The position numbers and the translations under genes were made by a program. 53,672 bases of DNA. It comes from a bacterium. GTDB lineage: Bacteria > Patescibacteriota > Doudnabacteria > UBA920 > VMFF01. The DNA lies in the NCBI GenBank assembly GCA_021842385.1, contig JAKCAE010000038.1, positions 1-53,672 on the forward strand, read 5' to 3'. The first letter of the stretch is position 1, and each line of letters begins with the position of its first letter. The notes under the pieces were generated by a model that worked only from the letters and a program-made list of their open reading frames with translations, had not been told where the DNA came from and did not search any database. Shown here one piece after another: positions 5,471-40,688 of the stretch.

Positions 5471-5475
5471 CGAAC

Positions 5476-5505
5476 GAGGCCCCAGCAATTGCTTGCAGGG
5501 GCCTC
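5476..5505. terminator. GC-rich hairpin between convergent hpf and the receiver gene
   Basis: gaggcccc (5476-5483) pairs perfectly with ggggcctc (5498-5505). It lies 4 nt after the minus-strand TGA stop. The U-tract is weak on both strands. Confidence 0.5.
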
Positions 5506-5509
5506 TTGT

Positions 5510-5863
5510 TCATGAGCAGATGTCGGTGAGAGCAGCCTTTTCGGTTTCGCCGAAAGGCTTGCTCAAGATCACGGTGAAGTGTTGCGGGTTGAAAGCGCTG
5601 TTCGGGTTGCCGCTCATCCCGAACATGCTCGCTTTCGGGAACTTCGCAGCGAACTTCGCAGCGACATCGTTGCCTGTGCCATCACCCAGGTCGAAGTCTG
5701 TCAGCAGTACGTCGAAGGTTTCGCTGTCTTCGATCGCTGAGAAAGCTTCCGATACGCTGGAAGCCAACACTACGCTGACATCGGGGTTTGTGCGTAGAAT
5801 CAGATCCCCGATGAATCTGCGAACCGCTTCCTGATCCTCGACTACTAGGACTTTTGTGCTCAC
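5510..5863 (-). CDS. Single-domain response regulator receiver (CheY-like), on GC-rich cassette 1
   Basis: VLVVEDQ (acidic pocket), VLLTDFDLGDGTG (phospho-acceptor Asp), GMSGN (Ser/Thr position), LSKPF (Lys-Pro). GTG start with AGGAGG 8 nt upstream. 36/60 G+C at 5581-5640. Confidence 0.85.
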   Translation of the reverse strand: MSTKVLVVEDQEAVRRFIGDLILRTNPDVSVVLASSVSEAFSAIEDSETFDVLLTDFDLGDGTGNDVAAKFAAKFPKASMFGMSGNPNSAFNPQHFTVILSKPFGETEKAALTDICS

Positions 5864-5891
5864 TTATACATCCTCCTTGATGGTTGTATAT

Positions 5892-5952: not shown

Positions 5953-5981
5953 TTGTTATTTCCCCCCAAAAAACATATAAT
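5953..5981 (+). promoter_or_regulatory. Sigma70-like promoter placed for a leaderless secA mRNA
   Basis: TTGTTA (5953-5958), 17 nt spacer, TATAAT (5976-5981), then only 6 nt before the secA ATG at 5988. Confidence 0.4.
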
Positions 5982-5987
5982 ATACGC

Positions 5988-8639
5988 ATGTCATTTTTAG
6001 AAAAAATCTTTGGAGGCAACCAAAGAGTCGTTTCAAGGCTAAAGGGCGTTGTTGATGAAATAAACGCTTTAGAAGAGCGTTTTAAAGGTTTAACAGACGC
6101 TCAGATTAAAGAACAAGTTCAGTCTTTTAAAAAGCAACTCTCTGATGAAAATGGCCCTAAAGATTACGAAGTTCAAAAGAAAATATTAGATCAAATACTT
6201 CCTGAAGTTTTTGCGCTAACAAGAGAAGCCGCAAAGCGAACAATCGGGCAAAGACATTATGATGTTCAGCTTGTGGGTGGTATTACGTTGCACAGAGGTC
6301 AGATTGCTGAAATGAAAACCGGAGAAGGAAAAACTTTAACAGCAACCCTACCCTTGGTTTTAAATGCTTTGACAGGAAGAGGCGCTCACTTGGTTACAGT
6401 TAACGACTATTTGGCTCGTTGGCATGCTTCTTTAATGGGTCCTATATATCACATGCTTGGTTTGTCTGTGTCTTCGATTCAGCACCAGCAGTCTTTCATC
6501 TATGATCCTGAATACGCTCCTGAAGAAGAAGAAGTTAAGCGCTTGGAAAGTGAAACCCAAGGTTTTGTTTTAGATGTTAAACATATGCGCACAGTTTCCA
6601 GAAGAGAAGCGTATGCAGCTGATATTACATATGGTACAAATAATGAATTTGGCTTTGACTATTTGCGTGACAACATGGTTGCTGATCTTTCGCAAATGGT
6701 TCAAAGAGAGCTTCATTTTTCCATTGTTGATGAAGTAGACAGCATTTTAATTGATGAAGCGCGTACTCCTTTGATCATTTCAGCACCAGACACAGATCCA
6801 ACTGATAAGTATTACCGTTTTGCAGAGTTGGTTGAAAAATTAGAGCACGGTTCTGATTACAGTATTGATGAAAAGAAAAAAGGCGTTGCTCTTTCAGAAA
6901 CAGGTATTGAAAAATTGGAAAAGCTTTTAAATGTTAAAAACATCTATGAAGAGGAAGGCGTTTCAACAGTGCACCATCTCGAACAAGCCTTGAGAGCAAA
7001 AGCTTTGTTTAAATTAGACAGAGATTATGTTGTTCGTGACGGTGAGGTTGTTTTAGTTGATGAGTTTACGGGTCGTTTAATGTTCGGACGAAGATATTCA
7101 GATGGCTTGCACCAGGCAATAGAAGCAAAAGAAGGCGTGAAGATTCAGCAGGAAAGCAAAACCCTGGCAACTGTCACTTTCCAAAATTACTTCAGAATGT
7201 ACAAAAAACTTGCCGGTATGACTGGTACTGCGCTAACTGAAGCAGAAGAATTTTTCAGCATCTACAAATTAGAAGTTGTTGCCATACCAACACACAGACC
7301 AATGATCAGGGAAGACAGAGCAGATGCAGTTTACAAGTCAGAAAAAGGCAAGTTTGAAGCCATTACCCGAGAGGTTATTGAAAGACATAAGAAAGGGCAG
7401 CCCCTGCTTATTGGTACTGTTTCCATCCAAAAGAACGAATTACTTGCAGAACACCTTAAAAAAGCGGGTTTAACTTTTGAGATATTAAATGCAAAGAACC
7501 ACGAACGTGAAGCACATATCATTTCTCAAGCAGGAAGATTTGGTGCAATAACTGTTGCCACAAACATAGCAGGTCGTGGTGTTGACATTCTGCTTGGAGG
7601 AAACCCAGTAGATCCGGATGAAGCGGAAAAAGTAAAAGCAGCAGGTGGTTTGCATATTCTTGGAACTGAAAGACACGAATCCCGAAGAATTGATAACCAG
7701 TTAAGAGGACGTTCTGGTCGTCAGGGAGATCCCGGCTCTTCTCAGTTTTTTGTTTCTTTGGAAGATGATTTAATGCGTCTTTTTGGCGGTGAGCGTTTGC
7801 AGAGATTAATGACAACTTTGGGAATTGAAGAGGATCAACCGATTGAAGCAGGTTTAGTTTCAAAATCAATTGAACAAGCACAGAAAAAGATTGAAGGATT
7901 AAACTTTGACACCAGAAAGCATGTTTTGGAATATGACGATGTCATGAACAAGCAAAGAGAGATAATCTACGGAAAACGTAGGGCTTGGCTAGAAGCAGGT
8001 AGCAATCACAAAGAAGAAATACTTTCTCTTGTTGAAACTGAAGTTTCAGAGCTTGTTAAAAACCACTTTCTAGCAGAAAATGATATTCAGGAACTGCTGA
8101 ATGCTTTGAACTCAATTTTTCCTCTGGGCAATGTAGAGGCAGGAAAAATTGTTGAAATGACAAAACAGCCGGGAGATTCAGAATTTGCCATCACTGATTT
8201 TGCTGTTAAGCTTGCTAAACAAAGATACGAAGAAAAAGAAAAAGCTCTTCCAGAGGAAGGAATAATGAGGCAGATTGAAAGAGGTATCTCATTACAAGCT
8301 TTAGACAATCTTTGGATGGAACATCTAGAAACCATGGAGCATTTAAGAGACTCTGTTGGTTTAAGGGGTTATGGACAAAGAGATCCATTAGTTGAATACA
8401 AGCGTGAATCTTTTGACTTATTTAAACGTTTGCTTGCTCAGATTAATTCCCAGATTGTATATACCATATACAAAGTAACAGTTCAGAAACAACCGGTTTC
8501 AGAATTACAAGAACTTGCTAAGAATGCCCAAGAAGTTTCTACAGAAACAACCACAGCAGATTCAGTGGAGAAAATCGGCAGGAATGACCCTTGTCCTTGC
8601 GGGTCAGGGAAGAAATATAAGAAGTGTCATGGGAAGTAA
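5988..8639 (+). CDS. secA: Preprotein translocase ATPase SecA
   Basis: [42 protein letters not shown], and C-terminal zinc motif [14 protein letters not shown]. Confidence 0.97.
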
Positions 8640-17925: not shown

Positions 17926-17971
17926 TTTACGTTGGTTATGCAGGAGGAAATACACTAAAGCCCGGGGGCTT

Positions 17972-18247
17972 ATGACACAGACCGACATGATACAACTGCT
18001 CCGTGATGCCTCAATTGCGGAAAGCGAGGCAGAAGCAAAATCCTGCCGTGACCAGTTCGTGGAGGCGTTCCGTGGTCTGGATCACTGGACCCAGTGCGTG
18101 CTCGCAGATCTCTATGATGAAGTGTTGCGTCGGTCACCGCGCGACCTTCCTGACCAGCTGATCTTCTACATGTACCTCAAGAGTGCCTCCGGCACCACCG
18201 AGCATGGACTCGGGCGACTGGAGCCTGCTACGGTCATGATGCGCTGA
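17972..18247 (+). CDS. Orphan 91-aa protein on GC-rich cassette 2
   Basis: Intact ORF with G/C-ending codon bias. 33/60 and 35/60 G+C at 18001-18120. No recognised motif. Weak SD (GGGGG 3 nt upstream). Confidence 0.5.
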   Translation: MTQTDMIQLLRDASIAESEAEAKSCRDQFVEAFRGLDHWTQCVLADLYDEVLRRSPRDLPDQLIFYMYLKSASGTTEHGLGRLEPATVMMR

Positions 18248-18264
18248 GTTCTCGGGCAGCAAAA

Positions 18265-18297
18265 CAGGGGCGATCTCGCAGCTAGAGATCGCCCCTG
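18265..18297. terminator. Perfect 13-bp GC-rich hairpin between convergent genes
   Basis: caggggcgatctc (18265-18277) / gagatcgcccctg (18285-18297). Read on the minus strand it is followed by TTTTG, so it could also terminate hppA. Confidence 0.65.
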
Positions 18298-18313
18298 TGC
18301 CACGTCTAGATAC

Positions 18314-20827: not shown

Positions 20828-20902
20828 TGGGGTGTAGCCAAGTGGTAAGGCATGGGACTCTGAATCCCACATTCGTAGGTTCGATCCCTACCACCCCAGC
20901 CA
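20828..20902 (+). tRNA. tRNA-Gln (anticodon CUG), CCA encoded
   Basis: Hand-folded cloverleaf. Acceptor TGGGGTG/CACCCCA with U1-A72, D arm GCC/GGC, anticodon arm TGGGA-CTCTGAA-TCCCA, T arm GTAGG-TTCGATC-CCTAC, discriminator G, then CCA. Confidence 0.9.
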
Positions 20903-28538: not shown

Positions 28539-28578
28539 TTATTCGTAAAATTACCTTTTTTGTGGTATACTAAAGGTA

Positions 28579-29865
28579 ATGAACAATACAAGAAACAAAA
28601 AGAAAATAACAATAGCAGCATTACTGATAACCCTGGGACTATATACAGTCCCTTTTTCTGCATTAAGCGCTACTAATTCAGAAATTGAGGCCCAGAAACA
28701 ATCAAAACAAGCTCAGCTTGATCAGTTAAACAAACAAATCACTGAATATCAGAATCAAATTGCGCAAAAAAGAAAACAATCAGCTACTTTGTCTAATGAA
28801 ATCGCTTTGTACGATATGGAAATAAAAGCAACAGGAATTCGCATCCAAGCTACCAGGACAAATATAGAAAACACAGATTTGCAAATAGAACAAACGAAGC
28901 TGCAAATAAAAGAAAAAACAGAACAGATAGAGCAAGAAAAAAAGCTTCTTGCAGAGTTAATTATTACACTTAATGAATATGACAACACTTCAAATCTACA
29001 GCTTGGTTTAGGTTCAAATAATTTTTCCGCTTTTATGGATCAGGTGCAGTATGCACAGTCTTTGCAAAACAAAATTTTTAATTTAATTCAGCAAATTAAA
29101 GAAATCCGCGCTAAGTTAGAAAAAGATGAGGAAGATTTACAGATTAATTTGAACAAGCTTAATGAGCTGAATGATCAGCTTTCTCAAACACAAAAAACTT
29201 TGAATAATCAAAAGAGTTCAAGGGTTGTTTTGTTGCAACAAACAAAAGGACAAGAAAGCAAATACCAAAAACTTCTCAGTACTTCTCAAGAAGAGCAAGC
29301 CAAGATAAATAAAGAAATATACGACCTTGATCAGCAACTGCGCGGAAAAGCAGGCTTTAATGCTTTAAAAGCAGTTCATGGAATAATAGCATATCCTATG
29401 GACGGGGTTTTGACCCAAAGATATGGCAATACAGGGTTTACAAAACTCGGTTATGATTTTCATAATGGACTTGATTTGGCAGCTCCAGCAGGAACTTCAA
29501 TCTATGCGGCAGCAGACGGGGTAGTCTATGCCACAGGCACAGGAACAACTGCCTATGGTAACTGGGTTGTCATAAAGCATTCAGCAGGAGGAAAGCTTGC
29601 TAAAGACATCATGACTCTTTATGCACACATGACTAAATTTACAGTTTCTGCCGGAGAAAAAGTAAAACAAGGCGATTTGATTGGTTATGAAGGAAATACC
29701 GGAAACACCACACGCTTGCTTTATGGCCCTGAAAGGGGATACCACCTGCATTTTGGAGTCTATGATGCAGAGGGTTTTGGTATAAAGAATGGGGCATATC
29801 CTAATATCTACGGCCCGTATAAAATACCTTACGGGTATACATATAATCCGGCTGATTTCTTGTAA
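28579..29865 (+). CDS. M23 family peptidoglycan metalloendopeptidase with N-terminal coiled coil (EnvC-like)
   Basis: Signal/TM, long Q/E/K coiled coil, then HNGLDLAAPAGTSIYAAADGVV...YAHM...HLHFGV. Confidence 0.85.
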   Translation: MNNTRNKKKITIAALLITLGLYTVPFSALSATNSEIEAQKQSKQAQLDQLNKQITEYQNQIAQKRKQSATLSNEIALYDMEIKATGIRIQATRTNIENTDLQIEQTKLQIKEKTEQIEQEKKLLAELIITLNEYDNTSNLQLGLGSNNFSAFMDQVQYAQSLQNKIFNLIQQIKEIRAKLEKDEEDLQINLNKLNELNDQLSQTQKTLNNQKSSRVVLLQQTKGQESKYQKLLSTSQEEQAKINKEIYDLDQQLRGKAGFNALKAVHGIIAYPMDGVLTQRYGNTGFTKLGYDFHNGLDLAAPAGTSIYAAADGVVYATGTGTTAYGNWVVIKHSAGGKLAKDIMTLYAHMTKFTVSAGEKVKQGDLIGYEGNTGNTTRLLYGPERGYHLHFGVYDAEGFGIKNGAYPNIYGPYKIPYGYTYNPADFL

Positions 29866-31490: not shown

Positions 31491-31584
31491 ACGCTATTTT
31501 TTTAAATCATTTGTCGTATAAGCTACATTGTGCGACTAGGGATAAATCTTAAAGAGAGTAGTCCCCTAGGCCTTTAGGTAGCAC

Positions 31585-31614
31585 GAAACCCAGGTCCTAC
31601 AATTCCTGGGTTTC
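31585..31614 (-). terminator. Perfect 10-bp hairpin ending cassette 3
   Basis: gaaacccagg (31585-31594) / cctgggtttc (31605-31614), 19 nt downstream of the minus-strand TAG at 31634-31636. Confidence 0.55.
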
Positions 31615-31633
31615 AGTGTATTCACAACAACTT

Positions 31634-31813
31634 CTAGTCGCGCGCAGCATCGTCGCTACAGCGCTTACAGAGGACGCCAGAAGCATCGTCACCGCAGCGT
31701 GCGCAACGATACGGCTTTCCAGCTTCCTCGTAGCCGGGATCCTGCATGTGCGCGAAAGTGCCTGGCGCTGGTGCATTTGCTGGCTTCTGGTGAAGCGAAA
31801 GAGGGGTGGTCAT
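31634..31813 (-). CDS. 59-aa Cys4 (CxxC-x8-CxxC) mini-protein, cassette 3 gene B (absent from the ORF track)
   Basis: My translation: MTTPLSLHQKPANAPAPGTFAHMQDPGYEEAGKPYRCARCGDDASGVLCKRCSDDAARD. GGAGA lies 3 nt upstream of the ATG. 36/60 G+C at 31681-31740. Confidence 0.5.
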   Translation of the reverse strand: MTTPLSLHQKPANAPAPGTFAHMQDPGYEEAGKPYRCARCGDDASGVLCKRCSDDAARD

Positions 31814-31834
31814 ATGTCTCCTGGGGTTGAGGGG

Positions 31835-32023
31835 CTAGCGAACTTCCTGGCCCATGAAGAAGACAGCGTTGCAGTCAGGTTCCCCGCCTTGGTTGCTGCA
31901 AATCTGCAACTGTCCGCTAATTTCTAACGGGCTCGTGCAGAACGTGCACTGCTTCAGCGGGTACATCTGCGCATCTGAAATCTTGCGACCTTGCTCGGTT
32001 GCCCCGACTTGCTTTGTTGCCAT
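31835..32023 (-). CDS. 62-aa Cys4 (CxxC-x12-C-x8-C) mini-protein, cassette 3 gene A
   Basis: MATKQVG...KQCTFCTSPLEISGQLQICSNQGGEPDCNAV. GAGGG lies 7 nt upstream of the ATG. 21-nt gap to gene B. Confidence 0.5.
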   Translation of the reverse strand: MATKQVGATEQGRKISDAQMYPLKQCTFCTSPLEISGQLQICSNQGGEPDCNAVFFMGQEVR

Positions 32024-32084
32024 GTTTAGACCCTCGTGGTGGGAGGTCTTGTTGTGTGTATCTTCCCTGCTTTAAGTTCACTGT

Positions 32085-32114
32085 AGGATAGCAGTAGGGA
32101 GATATTTACGTCAA
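32085..32114 (-). promoter_or_regulatory. Sigma70-like promoter for cassette 3, abutting the pepN stop codon
   Basis: Minus strand reads TTGACG (32114-32109), 18 nt spacer, TATCCT (32090-32085). Confidence 0.35.
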
Positions 32115-34699: not shown

Positions 34700-34740
34700 A
34701 CAGAAACAACAAACGCTCGCATCCCCATATACGAGCGTTT
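34700..34740 (-). terminator. Rho-independent terminator ending cassette 4
   Basis: aaacgctcg (34711-34719) / cgagcgttt (34732-34740). On the minus strand it overlaps the TGA stop and is followed by GTTGTTTCTGTT. Confidence 0.65.
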
Positions 34741-35393
34741 CATGAATTAAGACCTGCCTCCTTAAGTTTAGCCGTCAAAAACATGGCGTCATCAACCTGC
34801 CTTCTGACTTCCTGGAGATTGTCATAGCAGTGCAACCAATAGCTTGCTGCCTGCTGGAGGCTCTTACTGACAGAGACTTCTCTTACTATCTCAAGCTGAA
34901 CATCTCTGGGCACGCGACCAATGATCGGGCGCTCGTGGATCTTTTTAAACTGCAGCATTACATGCGAGAACGGATCTGGTTTTGAGTTTGGATCCATATA
35001 CTGTGGCTGCTTACCTAGCAGTAATGCTTCAACAGTTTCCTCGCCGTTGAAATATCTAACAATGTAAGCATCAGTTGGATCTGCAACAGTACCGTGCACG
35101 CCTTGTATGATGTTACGTATCTGGAAGCGCTGGCGCTGCACATCAACCAGAGCTTGAGCAGCAAGGGCAGCTTTCAGACAAAGCTCATCACCAAGAGTTG
35201 TTTCTGCAAGCTGTATTACCCTGCCTCCTCCCAAGGTTACTGCCGATATCTCAGCTTCCTTGCCAAACCACAAAAGCGCTGTGTTGAAGAAGTTGGGAAT
35301 GAAGAGCAAAGGATTGCTCAAAGCTTGTCTCCCTCCAGCCTTGACTATCAGTTGTATGACCCAGGCCTCCATGAAGGAGAGTCTGCGCAACAT
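34740..35393 (-). CDS. Orphan 217-aa protein on GC-enriched cassette 4
   Basis: Intact ORF. 29/60 and 31/60 G+C at 34861-34920 and 35101-35160, versus about 21/60 in backbone. No recognised motif. Confidence 0.6.
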   Translation of the reverse strand: MLRRLSFMEAWVIQLIVKAGGRQALSNPLLFIPNFFNTALLWFGKEAEISAVTLGGGRVIQLAETTLGDELCLKAALAAQALVDVQRQRFQIRNIIQGVHGTVADPTDAYIVRYFNGEETVEALLLGKQPQYMDPNSKPDPFSHVMLQFKKIHERPIIGRVPRDVQLEIVREVSVSKSLQQAASYWLHCYDNLQEVRRQVDDAMFLTAKLKEAGLNS

Positions 35394-37505: not shown

Positions 37506-38714
37506 TTACTTCTTTTCATCAACCCATTCAACCCTACGCAGTTCTTTAACCAAACCAGGTAAAACAGAAAGCAGTTTTTGCAGATCTTTCTTTTTAGTAG
37601 CTCTACCCAAAGTTATACGCACACTTGCTTTTGCGTTACTCTTACTTAAACCAAGTGCTATCAATACATGAGAGGGATCAAGGCTTGTTGAAGCACAAGC
37701 AGACCCCGTAGAAACTGCAAACCCTTGGGCATCTAAATACAAAAGCAATGCTTCACCATCAATGCCTGGGAAAGAAAAGTTAATGTTGTTTGGCAGTCTG
37801 GAATGTTCTGGTCCATTTAAAATTGCCTTAGGAATTCTTTTTTTAATCTCCTTAATTAAATATCCCTGTAATATCTTCAATCTGTTATTTTCTTCCGCTT
37901 TTAATTTTTCGGAAATCTCTAATGCTTTTGCAAAACCTGATATGCCCGCTGTATTTTCTGTGCCAGAACGTAAACCTCTTTCCTGTCCCCCTCCATAAAC
38001 TAAAGGTTTTAAAGTAACACCTGCACGAACATACAACAAACCAATTTGTTTCGGACCGTAGATCTTACTGGCATTTAAAGTCATTAAATCAACACCAAGT
38101 CTGTTAACATTTAAATCTAAAGCTCCTGCTGCTTGGCAAGCATCTGTGTGAAAAAGAATCTTGTTTTTTCTGTTTGCGTTAGCTTTGCGAATTACTTTTG
38201 AAATTTCACTAATCGGCTCTATGGTTCCAACCTCATTATTTGCATACATAATACTTACGAGTACCGTATTTTTTTGAATGTTCTTTGCTACTTCTTTTGG
38301 ATCAACAAAACCAAAGTTATTAGTTTTCAAAATAGTTAATACAATGCCCTCTGCTTCTAAAGCTTTAGCGCTTTCTAAAACTGCGTGATGCTCTATTGCT
38401 GAAACTATTAAGTGGGGTTTTTTAATTCCTAAAGCCATTGCTTGTCTAATAACCCCAAACAAAGCAAGATTAACAGACTCAGTTCCGCCTGCAGTAAAAA
38501 CTATTTCTCCTTCACGAGCAGAAAGCATTTTAGCAATCTTTACCCTTGCTCCCTCTATTTCAAACTTAGCCTGCATGCCAAGCTCATAGATACTCGAAGC
38601 ATTAGCGTAATTTTTAGAAAAAGACTCTTTCATTACCAAAGCAACCCTTGGACCAAGAGGTGTTGCCGCTGCATAATCAAGATATATTAGTTTTTTCTTT
38701 TTGCGCTCTAACAT
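37506..38714 (-). CDS. Cysteine desulfurase (NifS/IscS class)
   Basis: FTAGGTESVN, HTDACQA, PLP lysine in NASKIYGPK, catalytic STGSACAS. Confidence 0.9.
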   Translation of the reverse strand: MLERKKKKLIYLDYAAATPLGPRVALVMKESFSKNYANASSIYELGMQAKFEIEGARVKIAKMLSAREGEIVFTAGGTESVNLALFGVIRQAMALGIKKPHLIVSAIEHHAVLESAKALEAEGIVLTILKTNNFGFVDPKEVAKNIQKNTVLVSIMYANNEVGTIEPISEISKVIRKANANRKNKILFHTDACQAAGALDLNVNRLGVDLMTLNASKIYGPKQIGLLYVRAGVTLKPLVYGGGQERGLRSGTENTAGISGFAKALEISEKLKAEENNRLKILQGYLIKEIKKRIPKAILNGPEHSRLPNNINFSFPGIDGEALLLYLDAQGFAVSTGSACASTSLDPSHVLIALGLSKSNAKASVRITLGRATKKKDLQKLLSVLPGLVKELRRVEWVDEKK

Positions 38715-38733
38715 CCAGCAAATTATCTCATAT

Positions 38734-38761
38734 TTGACCTATATATTCAATGCTTTAAAAT
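38734..38761 (+). promoter_or_regulatory. Sigma70-like promoter upstream of the GC-rich non-coding segment
   Basis: TTGACC (38734-38739), 16 nt spacer, TAAAAT (38756-38761). The predicted start near 38768 coincides with the first hairpin. Confidence 0.4.
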
Positions 38762-38767
38762 ACAGTT

Positions 38768-39016
38768 GTTGAAGAGTTCAGTCCCGCCGTAGGGTGGACT
38801 GTTCAACCAGGGCATGCTGGCCCAGGTACCTTGCACGATCTTTGTGCTAACGCCGCAAGAGCTTTTTACGAGCCGCTCTGCTTGTCTGCGGGGGAGGTAT
38901 CTTTACAGCGGAGTTGTCCTGATCAAACCCGAACGAGGGTAAAAGAGCGGTGAGGGGGGCCAGAAGGCCCACTGAGGGTCGTGCATGCAACTTAAAGCCA
39001 CTGCGCGACCCTCTTC
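38768..39016 (+). ncRNA. Candidate structured RNA of unknown class (or long structured 5' leader of the downstream methyltransferase gene); ends approximate
   Basis: 33-35/60 G+C and G more frequent than C on the plus strand. No convincing ORF. Hairpin 38768-38807. Long-range ccgctct/agagcgg (38873-38879/38944-38950). gggcc-agaa-ggccc (38957-38970). 8-bp stem gagggtcg/cgaccctc (38974-38981/39006-39013). 5' gaagag pairs with 3' ctcttc. Confidence 0.45.
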
Positions 39017-39059
39017 CTAATTGCCCGAAAAGCGCGATTACTGTAATATTCAAATACAT

Positions 39060-40337
39060 ATGCAATACGCATTCATTTTAGGGAGGGTCTATACATTATC
39101 TATTGCTGAACTACTGGTTGTCCTTAAAGAGGAACTGTTGAATCATGAAATTCCTTTTAAAATATTAGCTGCTTCAGAAGAAGCATTAATCATTGAAAGT
39201 GAAAAACAATTAGATCATGAAAAGCTCCAACGTCGTTTAGGTGGAGTTATTAAAATTGTAAAGCTAGTTGACGTGGTTAAAAAACGCGAACAGGATTCAA
39301 TTAACTTTGCCCTGCAAAACTATTTCAAGCCAAGTAAATTAAAAAAAGATTTTTTAAAAGAATACAGCGGCAAAAAACAATTTGGCGTTAGTTTGTATTT
39401 GTTGGATAAAAGCATTAAAGGTTTTGGCGAACCCAAACGCTTAGGCATGTTCATTAAAAAAGCACTAGTTGAAGAAGGAGATTCAATCCGGGTTTGTCTG
39501 CCTGATTACAACTCCCTTTCATTGGCATCTGTTGTGGTTACAAAAAATCTCTTGTTGCAAAAAGGAGCTGAAATTGTCGTCATCGCGGGAATTGATAGAG
39601 TCTATGTCGGAAAAACTTTGGTTGTTCAGGATTTTGAGGACTATGGCAGACGAGACTATCAAAGACCTGTAAGAGATGAAAAACAAGGAATGATTCCACC
39701 TAAAGTTGCCCAGATTATGATTAACTTTGCCGAGCTTCCAAAGAACGGGATTGTTCTTGATCCTTTCTGCGGTATAGGGACGATTATACAAGAAGCAATA
39801 CTTTTGGGACACAAAGCATATGGTTCAGATATTGCTAGGTTTGCCATTTCAGGAAGCGAAAAAAACTTAGAGTGGTTTAGAAACAGATACAAAGTACCAC
39901 CAGGGAAATATAAGCTTGAGGTTTCAGACGTTGCTTCTGTCTCCAAAGTTTTTAAGGATGAGAAAATAGCAGGGATAGTCACAGAAGGATATTTGGGTCC
40001 CATGTATTCAAGCTTTCCTAAGGAAACTGAAATAAAGCAAAACTTTGAAGATTTAGAAGAGCTTTGGCTAAATGCCTTTAAAGAGTTTAAAAAAATCTTG
40101 CCAAAAGGTGCTCATGTTGTCATTTGCCTGCCTTGTTATAGAAAAGATACGGATAGCTATGTCCCCTTTCCAAGCGTTGACTTCATCACTGATTTAGGCT
40201 ATGATATTGAGGATCATTTTCCAGCAGCTTCTAAAAAATTGATGCCCTTTCTGAAATTAACAGAAAGAAAATCAATGATCTATGATCGAAAAGATCAGGT
40301 GGTTGCCCGGGAAATATTAACGTTCATTAATAATTAA
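39060..40337 (+). CDS. SAM-dependent RNA/DNA methyltransferase (UPF0020/Trm11-RlmL-like)
   Basis: Motif I VLDPFCGIGTIIQEA, with an N-terminal non-catalytic domain. ATG 39060 is preferred over the TTG at 39021, which lies in the GC-rich segment. Confidence 0.65.
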   Translation: MQYAFILGRVYTLSIAELLVVLKEELLNHEIPFKILAASEEALIIESEKQLDHEKLQRRLGGVIKIVKLVDVVKKREQDSINFALQNYFKPSKLKKDFLKEYSGKKQFGVSLYLLDKSIKGFGEPKRLGMFIKKALVEEGDSIRVCLPDYNSLSLASVVVTKNLLLQKGAEIVVIAGIDRVYVGKTLVVQDFEDYGRRDYQRPVRDEKQGMIPPKVAQIMINFAELPKNGIVLDPFCGIGTIIQEAILLGHKAYGSDIARFAISGSEKNLEWFRNRYKVPPGKYKLEVSDVASVSKVFKDEKIAGIVTEGYLGPMYSSFPKETEIKQNFEDLEELWLNAFKEFKKILPKGAHVVICLPCYRKDTDSYVPFPSVDFITDLGYDIEDHFPAASKKLMPFLKLTERKSMIYDRKDQVVAREILTFINN

Positions 40338-40632: not shown

Positions 40633-40656
40633 AGATCTACTTCCAAAAGATAAATT

Positions 40657-40680
40657 AAAACCCCTCAAACAAGGGGTTTT
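40657..40680. terminator. Bidirectional terminator between rpmA and pyrG
   Basis: aaaacccct / aggggtttt stem flanked by A and T runs. Confidence 0.7.
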
Positions 40681-40688
40681 AATTTTGG

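Follow-up and report, generated by a model that had tools for sequence, protein, structure and literature searches.

The spacer between a nifS-like gene and the diverging gene for a Trm11-like methyltransferase, on a contig of Candidatus Doudnabacteria (CPR/Patescibacteria), holds an element that is real, non-coding and read from the plus strand, and whose fold is under selection. The DNA analysed, referred to below as the window, is the whole 53.7-kb stretch, with a G+C content of 38% (0.379). The conserved fold consists of nine helices and a 7-bp pseudoknot. With confidence somewhat above even, we interpret the element as a separate gene for a compactly folded non-coding RNA of ~250-270 nt, which would have its own promoter and be restricted to one genus.

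We propose that the RNA is transcribed rightward from a strong sigma-70 promoter placed back-to-back with the nifS promoter. The product would fold into a 5' hairpin (P1), a P2-P3-P4 stack bearing P5 and P6, a pseudoknot between the P6 loop and a strand past P2, and the 3' hairpins P7, P8 and P9. It would work as the folded RNA itself, as a protein- or ligand-binding scaffold or as a catalytic RNA, and probably neither as an mRNA leader nor as a base-pairing sRNA. The methyltransferase would be expressed mainly from a promoter of its own, on a nearly leaderless mRNA, and the RNA transcript may read through and be trimmed. Its origin was presumably a single event, emergence or acquisition, in the ancestor of one genus of Doudnabacteria, and it sits in the slot that related genera fill with a gene for a small ArfC-like membrane protein.

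Genomic setting

The features of the locus, in window coordinates, are as follows.

37506-38714, minus strand: nifS-like gene (Aminotran_5).
38722-38750, minus strand: predicted promoter of the nifS-like gene, TTGAAT-17-GATAAT with an upstream TG, back-to-back with the next; ATTATC and TTCAA are conserved.
38734-38761, plus strand: predicted promoter of the RNA, from sequence and conservation; -35 box TTGACC (38734-38739), 16-nt spacer, -10 box TAAAAT (38756-38761).
38764-39035, plus strand: full match to the covariance model R1 (276 bits, E = 3e-78, R1 E-values being rough), with the folded core at 38768-39013.
39021-39049, plus strand: putative own promoter of the methyltransferase gene, TTGCCC-17-TAATAT, 10 nt ahead of the ATG at 39060; ATTGC and TGTAAWAT are conserved in all variants.
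39060-40337, plus strand: methyltransferase gene (425 aa, Pfam N6_N4_Mtase/UPF0020).

Relatives of the window methyltransferase carry the JGI name 'tRNA G10 N-methylase Trm11'. The next gene is rpmA (L27), giving a methyltransferase-L27 operon. An identical nifS-like protein is encoded on contig DAIEPJ010000047 of GCA_027348475.1 and on three Logan contigs, where the intergenic sequence equals that of the window save for one base. Between rpmA and the convergent CTP synthase gene lies a perfect palindromic hairpin of 14-15 bp (40652-40685) flanked by A- and T-runs. From its sequence this is a textbook bidirectional intrinsic terminator, and canonical terminators would thus be in use in the host.

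Promoters and start signals

A preliminary description of the segment had placed a promoter, TTGACC-16-TAAAAT, ahead of it and a 40-nt hairpin (38768-38807) at the start of transcription. Both are borne out. The promoter matches 10 of 12 consensus positions; no site scores higher in a 20-kb scan, three sites tie, and both hexamers are unchanged in five species (four besides that of the window). By sequence, then, the element is equipped with a strong sigma-70 promoter of its own. The predicted transcription start is at ~38767-38769, where the hairpin, P1 of the fold described below, begins, and P1 is conserved across species.

The divergent promoter of the nifS-like gene ends 7 nt ahead of the ATG at 38714, so the nifS mRNA would be leaderless. 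A -10 box 6-7 nt ahead of the ATG is found at several first operon genes, namely nifS (38715-38767) and those starting at 5988 (5960-5990) and 28579 (28560-28581), and only ~10 of the 42 genes checked in the window have a Shine-Dalgarno-like motif. These start signals suggest that leaderless initiation is widespread in this genome. The methyltransferase gene likewise appears to have a separate promoter, a TTGCYY-17-TAAWAT pair being conserved between P9 and its ATG. In the window this site (TTGCCC-17-TAATAT) is weak, matching only 8 of 12 positions and falling under the scan threshold, and its 10-nt spacing to the ATG is longer than at the clear leaderless genes, which tells against expression from this promoter.

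Distribution of the element

Copies of the element were found with nhmmer and with R1, a covariance model built in this analysis. A protein-anchored scan in which a single genome stood for each GTDB species gave 37 loci with relatives of the methyltransferase, and only four (L005-L008) contain the element; the methyltransferase there is 86-88% identical to that of the window. An exact-motif scan of JGI and ENA metagenome contigs returned 71 stretches, comprising three true copies in the same type of locus and 68 that R1 judged to be chance, and more copies came from contigs encoding methyltransferases 88-89% identical. Eight distinct variants were obtained in total, from NCBI genome bins/MAGs and from JGI, ENA and Logan assemblies, each between nifS and the Trm11-like methyltransferase gene and 64-74% identical to the window copy. 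The element is present once in the window, and ~0.9 Mb of fetched loci contained it only in the nifS-methyltransferase slot; nothing related to it turned up in viral contigs or among the phages of GenBank and the plasmids of PLSDB. It is missing from 36 further loci with methyltransferase relatives (L009-L041, L127-L129). Judged by these collections, the element is confined to one narrow Doudnabacteria clade, a single genus with eight variants.

The divergent nifS-methyltransferase pair is kept across the Doudnabacteria examined. In relatives with a methyltransferase no more than 77% identical, the slot holds a gene for a small membrane-anchored protein, on the strand opposite to the methyltransferase gene. 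In these other Doudnabacteria (L009-L041, L127, L128) the protein has 105-150 aa, an N-terminal membrane anchor and a C-terminal C..KG...IYHLPG..Y motif, and that of L128 matches the Pfam family PF27542 (ArfC). The start codon of the slot gene abuts that of the methyltransferase gene on the other strand. Examples, in the coordinates of each locus, are:

L011, 3632-4000: slot gene.
L127, 2660-3000: slot gene.
L128, 260-586: slot gene.

No ArfC-like slot gene is present anywhere in the window. Descent of the segment from such a gene by decay was ruled out by its composition and by the absence of tblastn similarity.

Composition, strand and coding potential

The segment was described beforehand as G+C-rich with G in excess of C, and this is correct: the core (38768-39013) has 57% G+C, compared with 38% for the genome, and a positive skew. 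G+C ranges from 0.48 to 0.565 across 38700-39099, compared with 0.379 for the window, and the GC skew is +0.115. The plus strand folds with -113.8 kcal/mol (z = -3.8), a value matched by none of 200 shuffles, compared with z = -1.4 for the minus strand; homologues give z = -2.9 and -4.1. Summed over pair types, the seven-variant alignment contains 49 G-U cells, which on the opposite strand would give A-C mismatches. Together with the fold scores of the two strands, these cells show that the RNA is read from the plus strand.

The only open reading frames reported for the segment, of 42 and 72 codons, do exist, without a Pfam match and without conservation among homologues. Indels of 1 and 2 nt between variants shift the frame and no ORF is common to the variants, so coding is excluded and protein synthesis from the segment was rejected as an explanation.

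A conserved, pseudoknotted fold

The elements of the fold, all on the plus strand, are listed below; percentages refer to paired cells.

38768-38785/38792-38807: P1, 5' bulged hairpin of 15 bp; 99% paired, one compensatory pair, two one-sided (C-G to U-G).
38808-38813/38916-38921: P2; 95% paired, one compensatory pair.
38816-38819/38906-38909: P3; 100% paired, one compensatory pair.
38824-38832/38894-38902: P4; 100% paired, one compensatory pair.
38833-38847: P5, hairpin GCAC...GTGC (GCAT...ATGC in L006 and L008), present in single-sequence folds of all eight variants.
38853-38857/38887-38891: P6, CCGCA/TGCGG; three pairs with compensatory changes.
38873-38879/38944-38950: pseudoknot CCGCTCT/AGAGCGG, 7 bp; 100% paired in seven variants, three covarying positions.
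38928-38939: P7, 3-bp linker hairpin and the weakest helix; 90.5% paired, two compensatory pairs.
38956-38971: P8, hairpin GGGCC-AGAA-GGCCC; invariant block GGCCAGAAGGC.
38974-39013: P9, G+C-rich hairpin at the 3' end (12+3 bp) with no U-tract after it; 97.6% paired, three compensatory pairs.

In the alignment of seven variants, 93.8% of 518 pair cells are standard and 16 pairs carry compensatory changes, two figures that none of 500 column shuffles reached; all eight variants come from one clade and the covariation represents few independent events. Sliding the 3' partners by 1-3 columns lowers pairing to 42-52%. Hence the compensatory pairs go beyond both shuffled and slid controls in a segment with no conserved ORF, as expected of a structured non-coding RNA gene. 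When the window is compared with its relatives, identity is 70-85% in paired columns and 53-61% in unpaired ones, the latter close to the 55-58% at third codon positions of the methyltransferase gene, so selection acts mainly on the helices. Unpaired columns that are invariant number 42 and include GCCC (38820-38823), AAA (38941-38943) and the P8 loop.

The stacked P2-P3-P4 domain (38808-38921) encloses P5 and P6 and has the invariant GCCC at a junction. In P5 the C-G to U-A change was read directly from the sequences, since a one-column shift makes its alignment count poor. P6 occurs as CCGCA/UGCGG, UCGUG/CACGA and GGUAG/CUAC, and the 5' strand of the pseudoknot lies in its large loop; the 3' strand follows directly on the invariant AAA, downstream of P2. 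The pseudoknot is perfect in each of its forms, CCGCUCU/AGAGCGG, CCGUCCU/AGGACGG, CCAUCCU/AGGAUGG and CCGUCCU/AGGGCGG. With more than half of the columns paired and no long conserved single strand, the element does not look like a base-pairing sRNA.

Most of the helices proposed in the preliminary description are supported by covariation in the homologue alignment. The ccgctct/agagcgg pairing (38873/38944) is conserved, as the pseudoknot, and so are ccgca/tgcgg (P6) and gggcc-agaa-ggccc (P8). The 8-bp stem at the 3' end is conserved as well, although its true extent is the 12+3 bp of P9. Two further pairings failed as competing helices: agagc/gctct (38858/38875) and gaagag/ctcttc (38771/39011) both pair in 68-71% of cells, with one compensatory cell and none, respectively, and are no better conserved than shuffles. 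In single sequences RNAfold also pairs the 3' strand of the pseudoknot with the pyrimidine tail. This junction-closing helix was rejected as well: 73.7% of its cells are paired, none is compensatory, 499 of 500 shuffles equal it, and the register differs from species to species. The pairings once thought mutually exclusive thus reduce to a constitutive pseudoknot with unconserved competitors, so alternative conformations lack evidence and no riboswitch-type switch is supported.

Leader or separate RNA gene

The description had left the choice between a stand-alone sRNA and a riboswitch-like leader. A structured non-coding RNA is supported; the leader alternative gained no support, no expression platform being conserved. 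The element could in principle be a cis-acting 5' leader of the Trm11-like methyltransferase-rpmA operon, either a riboswitch or a protein- or tRNA-binding leader, in which transcription from the strong upstream promoter continues past P9 and downstream expression depends on the fold. Several features fit this reading, which we nonetheless consider rather unlikely. The element is co-oriented with the methyltransferase gene and, as first described, ends ~45 nt ahead of its ATG; the promoter ahead of it is stronger than the one proposed for the methyltransferase gene; and a pseudoknotted RNA of this size would be compatible with a large riboswitch. There is no U-tract terminator between P9 and the methyltransferase gene, and the scan that found canonical terminators elsewhere in the window did not call P9 as one. 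Since the genome uses canonical terminators, read-through into the methyltransferase-L27 operon is likely, and the element may have a cis effect on that operon.

A leader also needs a way to act on its gene. RNAalifold draws pairings between the tail and the coding region that enclose the start codon, but none of the 22 pairs covaries, the synonymous change GCA TTC to GCT TTT in L132 breaks the structure, and the GGGAGG partner of the start-codon helix is also found in relatives without the element; the start-codon-sequestering helix was rejected. The slot has neither a terminator/antiterminator pair nor a Shine-Dalgarno sequence to sequester, and the junction-closing helix that would compete with the pseudoknot behaves like a shuffled control, as described above. 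The slot thus shows no conserved expression platform, with no U-tract terminator and no supported start-site or competing helix. No Rfam riboswitch model matches. All other Doudnabacteria examined have the same gene without the element, and recurrent association with a gene is not seen, the eight variants being one vertically inherited locus. A separate RNA gene, whose transcript may extend into the operon, accounts better for these observations.

Other G+C-rich islands and a possible mobile origin

Three other G+C-rich islands occur in the window. The island at 5472-5880 (60% G+C) contains a minus-strand gene with a GTG start (5510-5863) for a 117-aa single-domain response-regulator receiver (PF00072, E = 3e-8). 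A strong Shine-Dalgarno sequence, AAGGAGG, sets this gene apart from most host genes, and on its 3' side lies a G+C-rich hairpin (~5478-5505) without a U-tract; by its sequence the island looks horizontally acquired. The island at 17927-18300 (peak 65% G+C in a 120-nt window) combines a promoter of the TTGACA type with an ORF of 91 aa (17972-18247), for which Pfam gives no match, and with a perfect hairpin, G+C-rich and again without a U-tract, at ~18262-18298. The island at 31545-32090 (peak 62.5% in a 120-nt window), between a gene for a 173-aa protein and an M1 peptidase gene, contains two small ORFs on the minus strand, one of 59 aa that is rich in Cys and one of 62 aa. In L130, whose methyltransferase is 88% identical, the corresponding position (899-2906) holds three A+T-rich genes instead (106 aa, RDD/zinc-ribbon and NYN), and this site is therefore a variable hot spot. 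Kinship of the element with the three islands was rejected, the only similarities being chance matches of 9-14 nt. Separately, a 217-aa ORF of ~50% G+C with no Pfam match (34740-35393) is found in the same place in L130 (5684-6334); on this comparison it is a second segment of odd composition yet stable inheritance.

It is improbable, in our judgement, that the RNA comes from a mobile or defence element, as a component or relic whose protein gene was lost or never present, and so is one of several foreign G+C-rich cassettes in the window; an omega/HEARO-type guide scaffold, a retron-like ncRNA or a bridge RNA would be examples. The composition of the element (57% against 38% G+C), the foreign-looking genes of the other islands with their strong Shine-Dalgarno sequences, and the difference in slot content between genera would fit such an origin. 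However, the element shares no sequence with those islands and has a single copy in the window; both flanks are syntenic housekeeping genes, with no reverse transcriptase, recombinase, IscB or TnpB gene adjacent; and viral contigs, phages, plasmids, and HEARO and related Rfam models gave no match. It has been stably inherited with compensatory evolution over ~8 lineages, whereas the island at 31545-32090 is missing in a close relative.

Known RNA families

At gathering scores, Rfam 15 (4227 families) matches only tRNA in the whole window. At E<=10, the region 38600-39200 and the L006 copy give only chance matches, to eukaryotic lncRNA/miRNA models, bacterial sRNA models and similar, far under gathering scores. 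Models for cobalamin, glmS, ydaO, raiA, HEARO, the group I intron and other Rfam 15 families do not match, nor do the RNase P RNA models (RF00010/RF00011), which include the conserved P4 boxes CR-I and CR-V, at the gathering score or at E<=10, and ARAGORN finds only tRNA-Gln (20828-20902) and no tmRNA in the window. The initial failure to recognize RNase P RNA, tmRNA, SRP RNA, 6S RNA or a common riboswitch is thus upheld by the Rfam search then recommended. Literature searches on structured RNAs of CPR bacteria and Doudnabacteria found none specific to the radiation. By these comparisons the element belongs to no described RNA family.

The topology points the same way. Both ends of the RNA lie in local hairpins, P1 at the 5' end and P9 at the 3' end, and the gaagag/ctcttc pairing of the two ends is unconserved; the element is therefore a poor fit to RNase P RNA with its P1/P2-type end-pairing, and equally to 6S RNA, SRP RNA and tmRNA. 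The consensus fold is branched and pseudoknotted, not the end-to-end rod with a large central bubble of 6S RNA. In SRP RNA, the domain IV helix is capped by a GNRA tetraloop and interrupted by conserved loops, both symmetric and asymmetric, whereas P8 pairs perfectly up to its AGAA loop and contains no internal loops; neither SRP nor 6S models of Rfam match. Neither ARAGORN nor Rfam finds the tRNA-like domain and tag-peptide frame of a tmRNA.

A strongly diverged or relocated copy of a housekeeping RNA (RNase P RNA, 6S, SRP RNA or tmRNA), missed by standard models in a CPR lineage, is therefore very improbable. In favour of such a copy, structured RNAs that stand alone, have a promoter and are G+C-rich within an A+T-rich genome usually belong to the housekeeping set; none of the four is found elsewhere in the 53.7-kb window; and GAAAAGGACGG loosely resembles the RNase P CR-I box. 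Against it, no such Rfam model reaches E = 10 on the window or the L006 copy, there is no end-to-end closing helix, and the element is absent from the nifS-methyltransferase slot of sister genera.

Possible role

A separate gene for a folded RNA leaves a more specific, tentative reading, which we hold with clearly less confidence. The element may represent a new class of large, pseudoknotted RNAs that is confined to one genus of the ultra-small, host-dependent Doudnabacteria and works either as a ribozyme or as the RNA component of a ribonucleoprotein. A single gain, perhaps from a donor rich in G+C, might have brought it in, followed by fixation where a gene for a small membrane protein had been; its biochemical role would have no counterpart among known RNA families. 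Structurally complex bacterial RNAs of more than 200 nt are rare, and those with a worked-out function are ribozymes, ribonucleoprotein cores or elaborate sensors. A 270-nt fold kept over the lifetime of a genus in tiny, strongly reduced CPR genomes implies a real function. The neighbourhood suggests no partner protein or ligand, and conservation of the unpaired positions, on average no higher than at third codon positions, falls short of what one would expect in the core of a ribozyme or aptamer. The narrow distribution and the uncultured hosts limit the immediate impact; a natural comparison is at hand in the protein gene that occupies the same slot in sister genera, and the covariance model is ready for use.

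Comparison with known systems

Three groups of known RNAs share features with the element. Cobalamin riboswitches, the glmS ribozyme and T-box leaders likewise lie upstream of a co-oriented gene, are on the 200-nt scale and use long-range pairing between a loop and a strand. Unlike them, the element has no conserved expression platform and no Rfam match, and the downstream gene is not linked to it outside one genus. RNase P RNA and 6S RNA resemble it in having their own sigma-70 promoter and a stable fold, and possibly in maturation from a transcript that reads into the downstream gene; 6S RNA of E. coli is matured from an ssrS-ygfA transcript. The element differs from both: it has no helix joining its 5' end to its 3' end, it lacks conserved boxes of the P4 type as well as a central bubble, and it is not found in the same slot in sister genera.

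The remaining group comprises the raiA motif RNA, OLE, ROOL/GOLLD and HEARO, large orphan ncRNAs of bacteria that were discovered as G+C-rich islands conserved between genes. The element has no sequence or structure match to any of these in Rfam 15, and it is far narrower in distribution (one genus, eight variants), with a fixed slot and no phage or mobile association. It has in common with them a length of more than 200 nt, many helices, a pseudoknot and a fold supported by covariation, together with a G+C content above that of the host, the lack of an ORF, and neighbouring genes that are uninformative on function.
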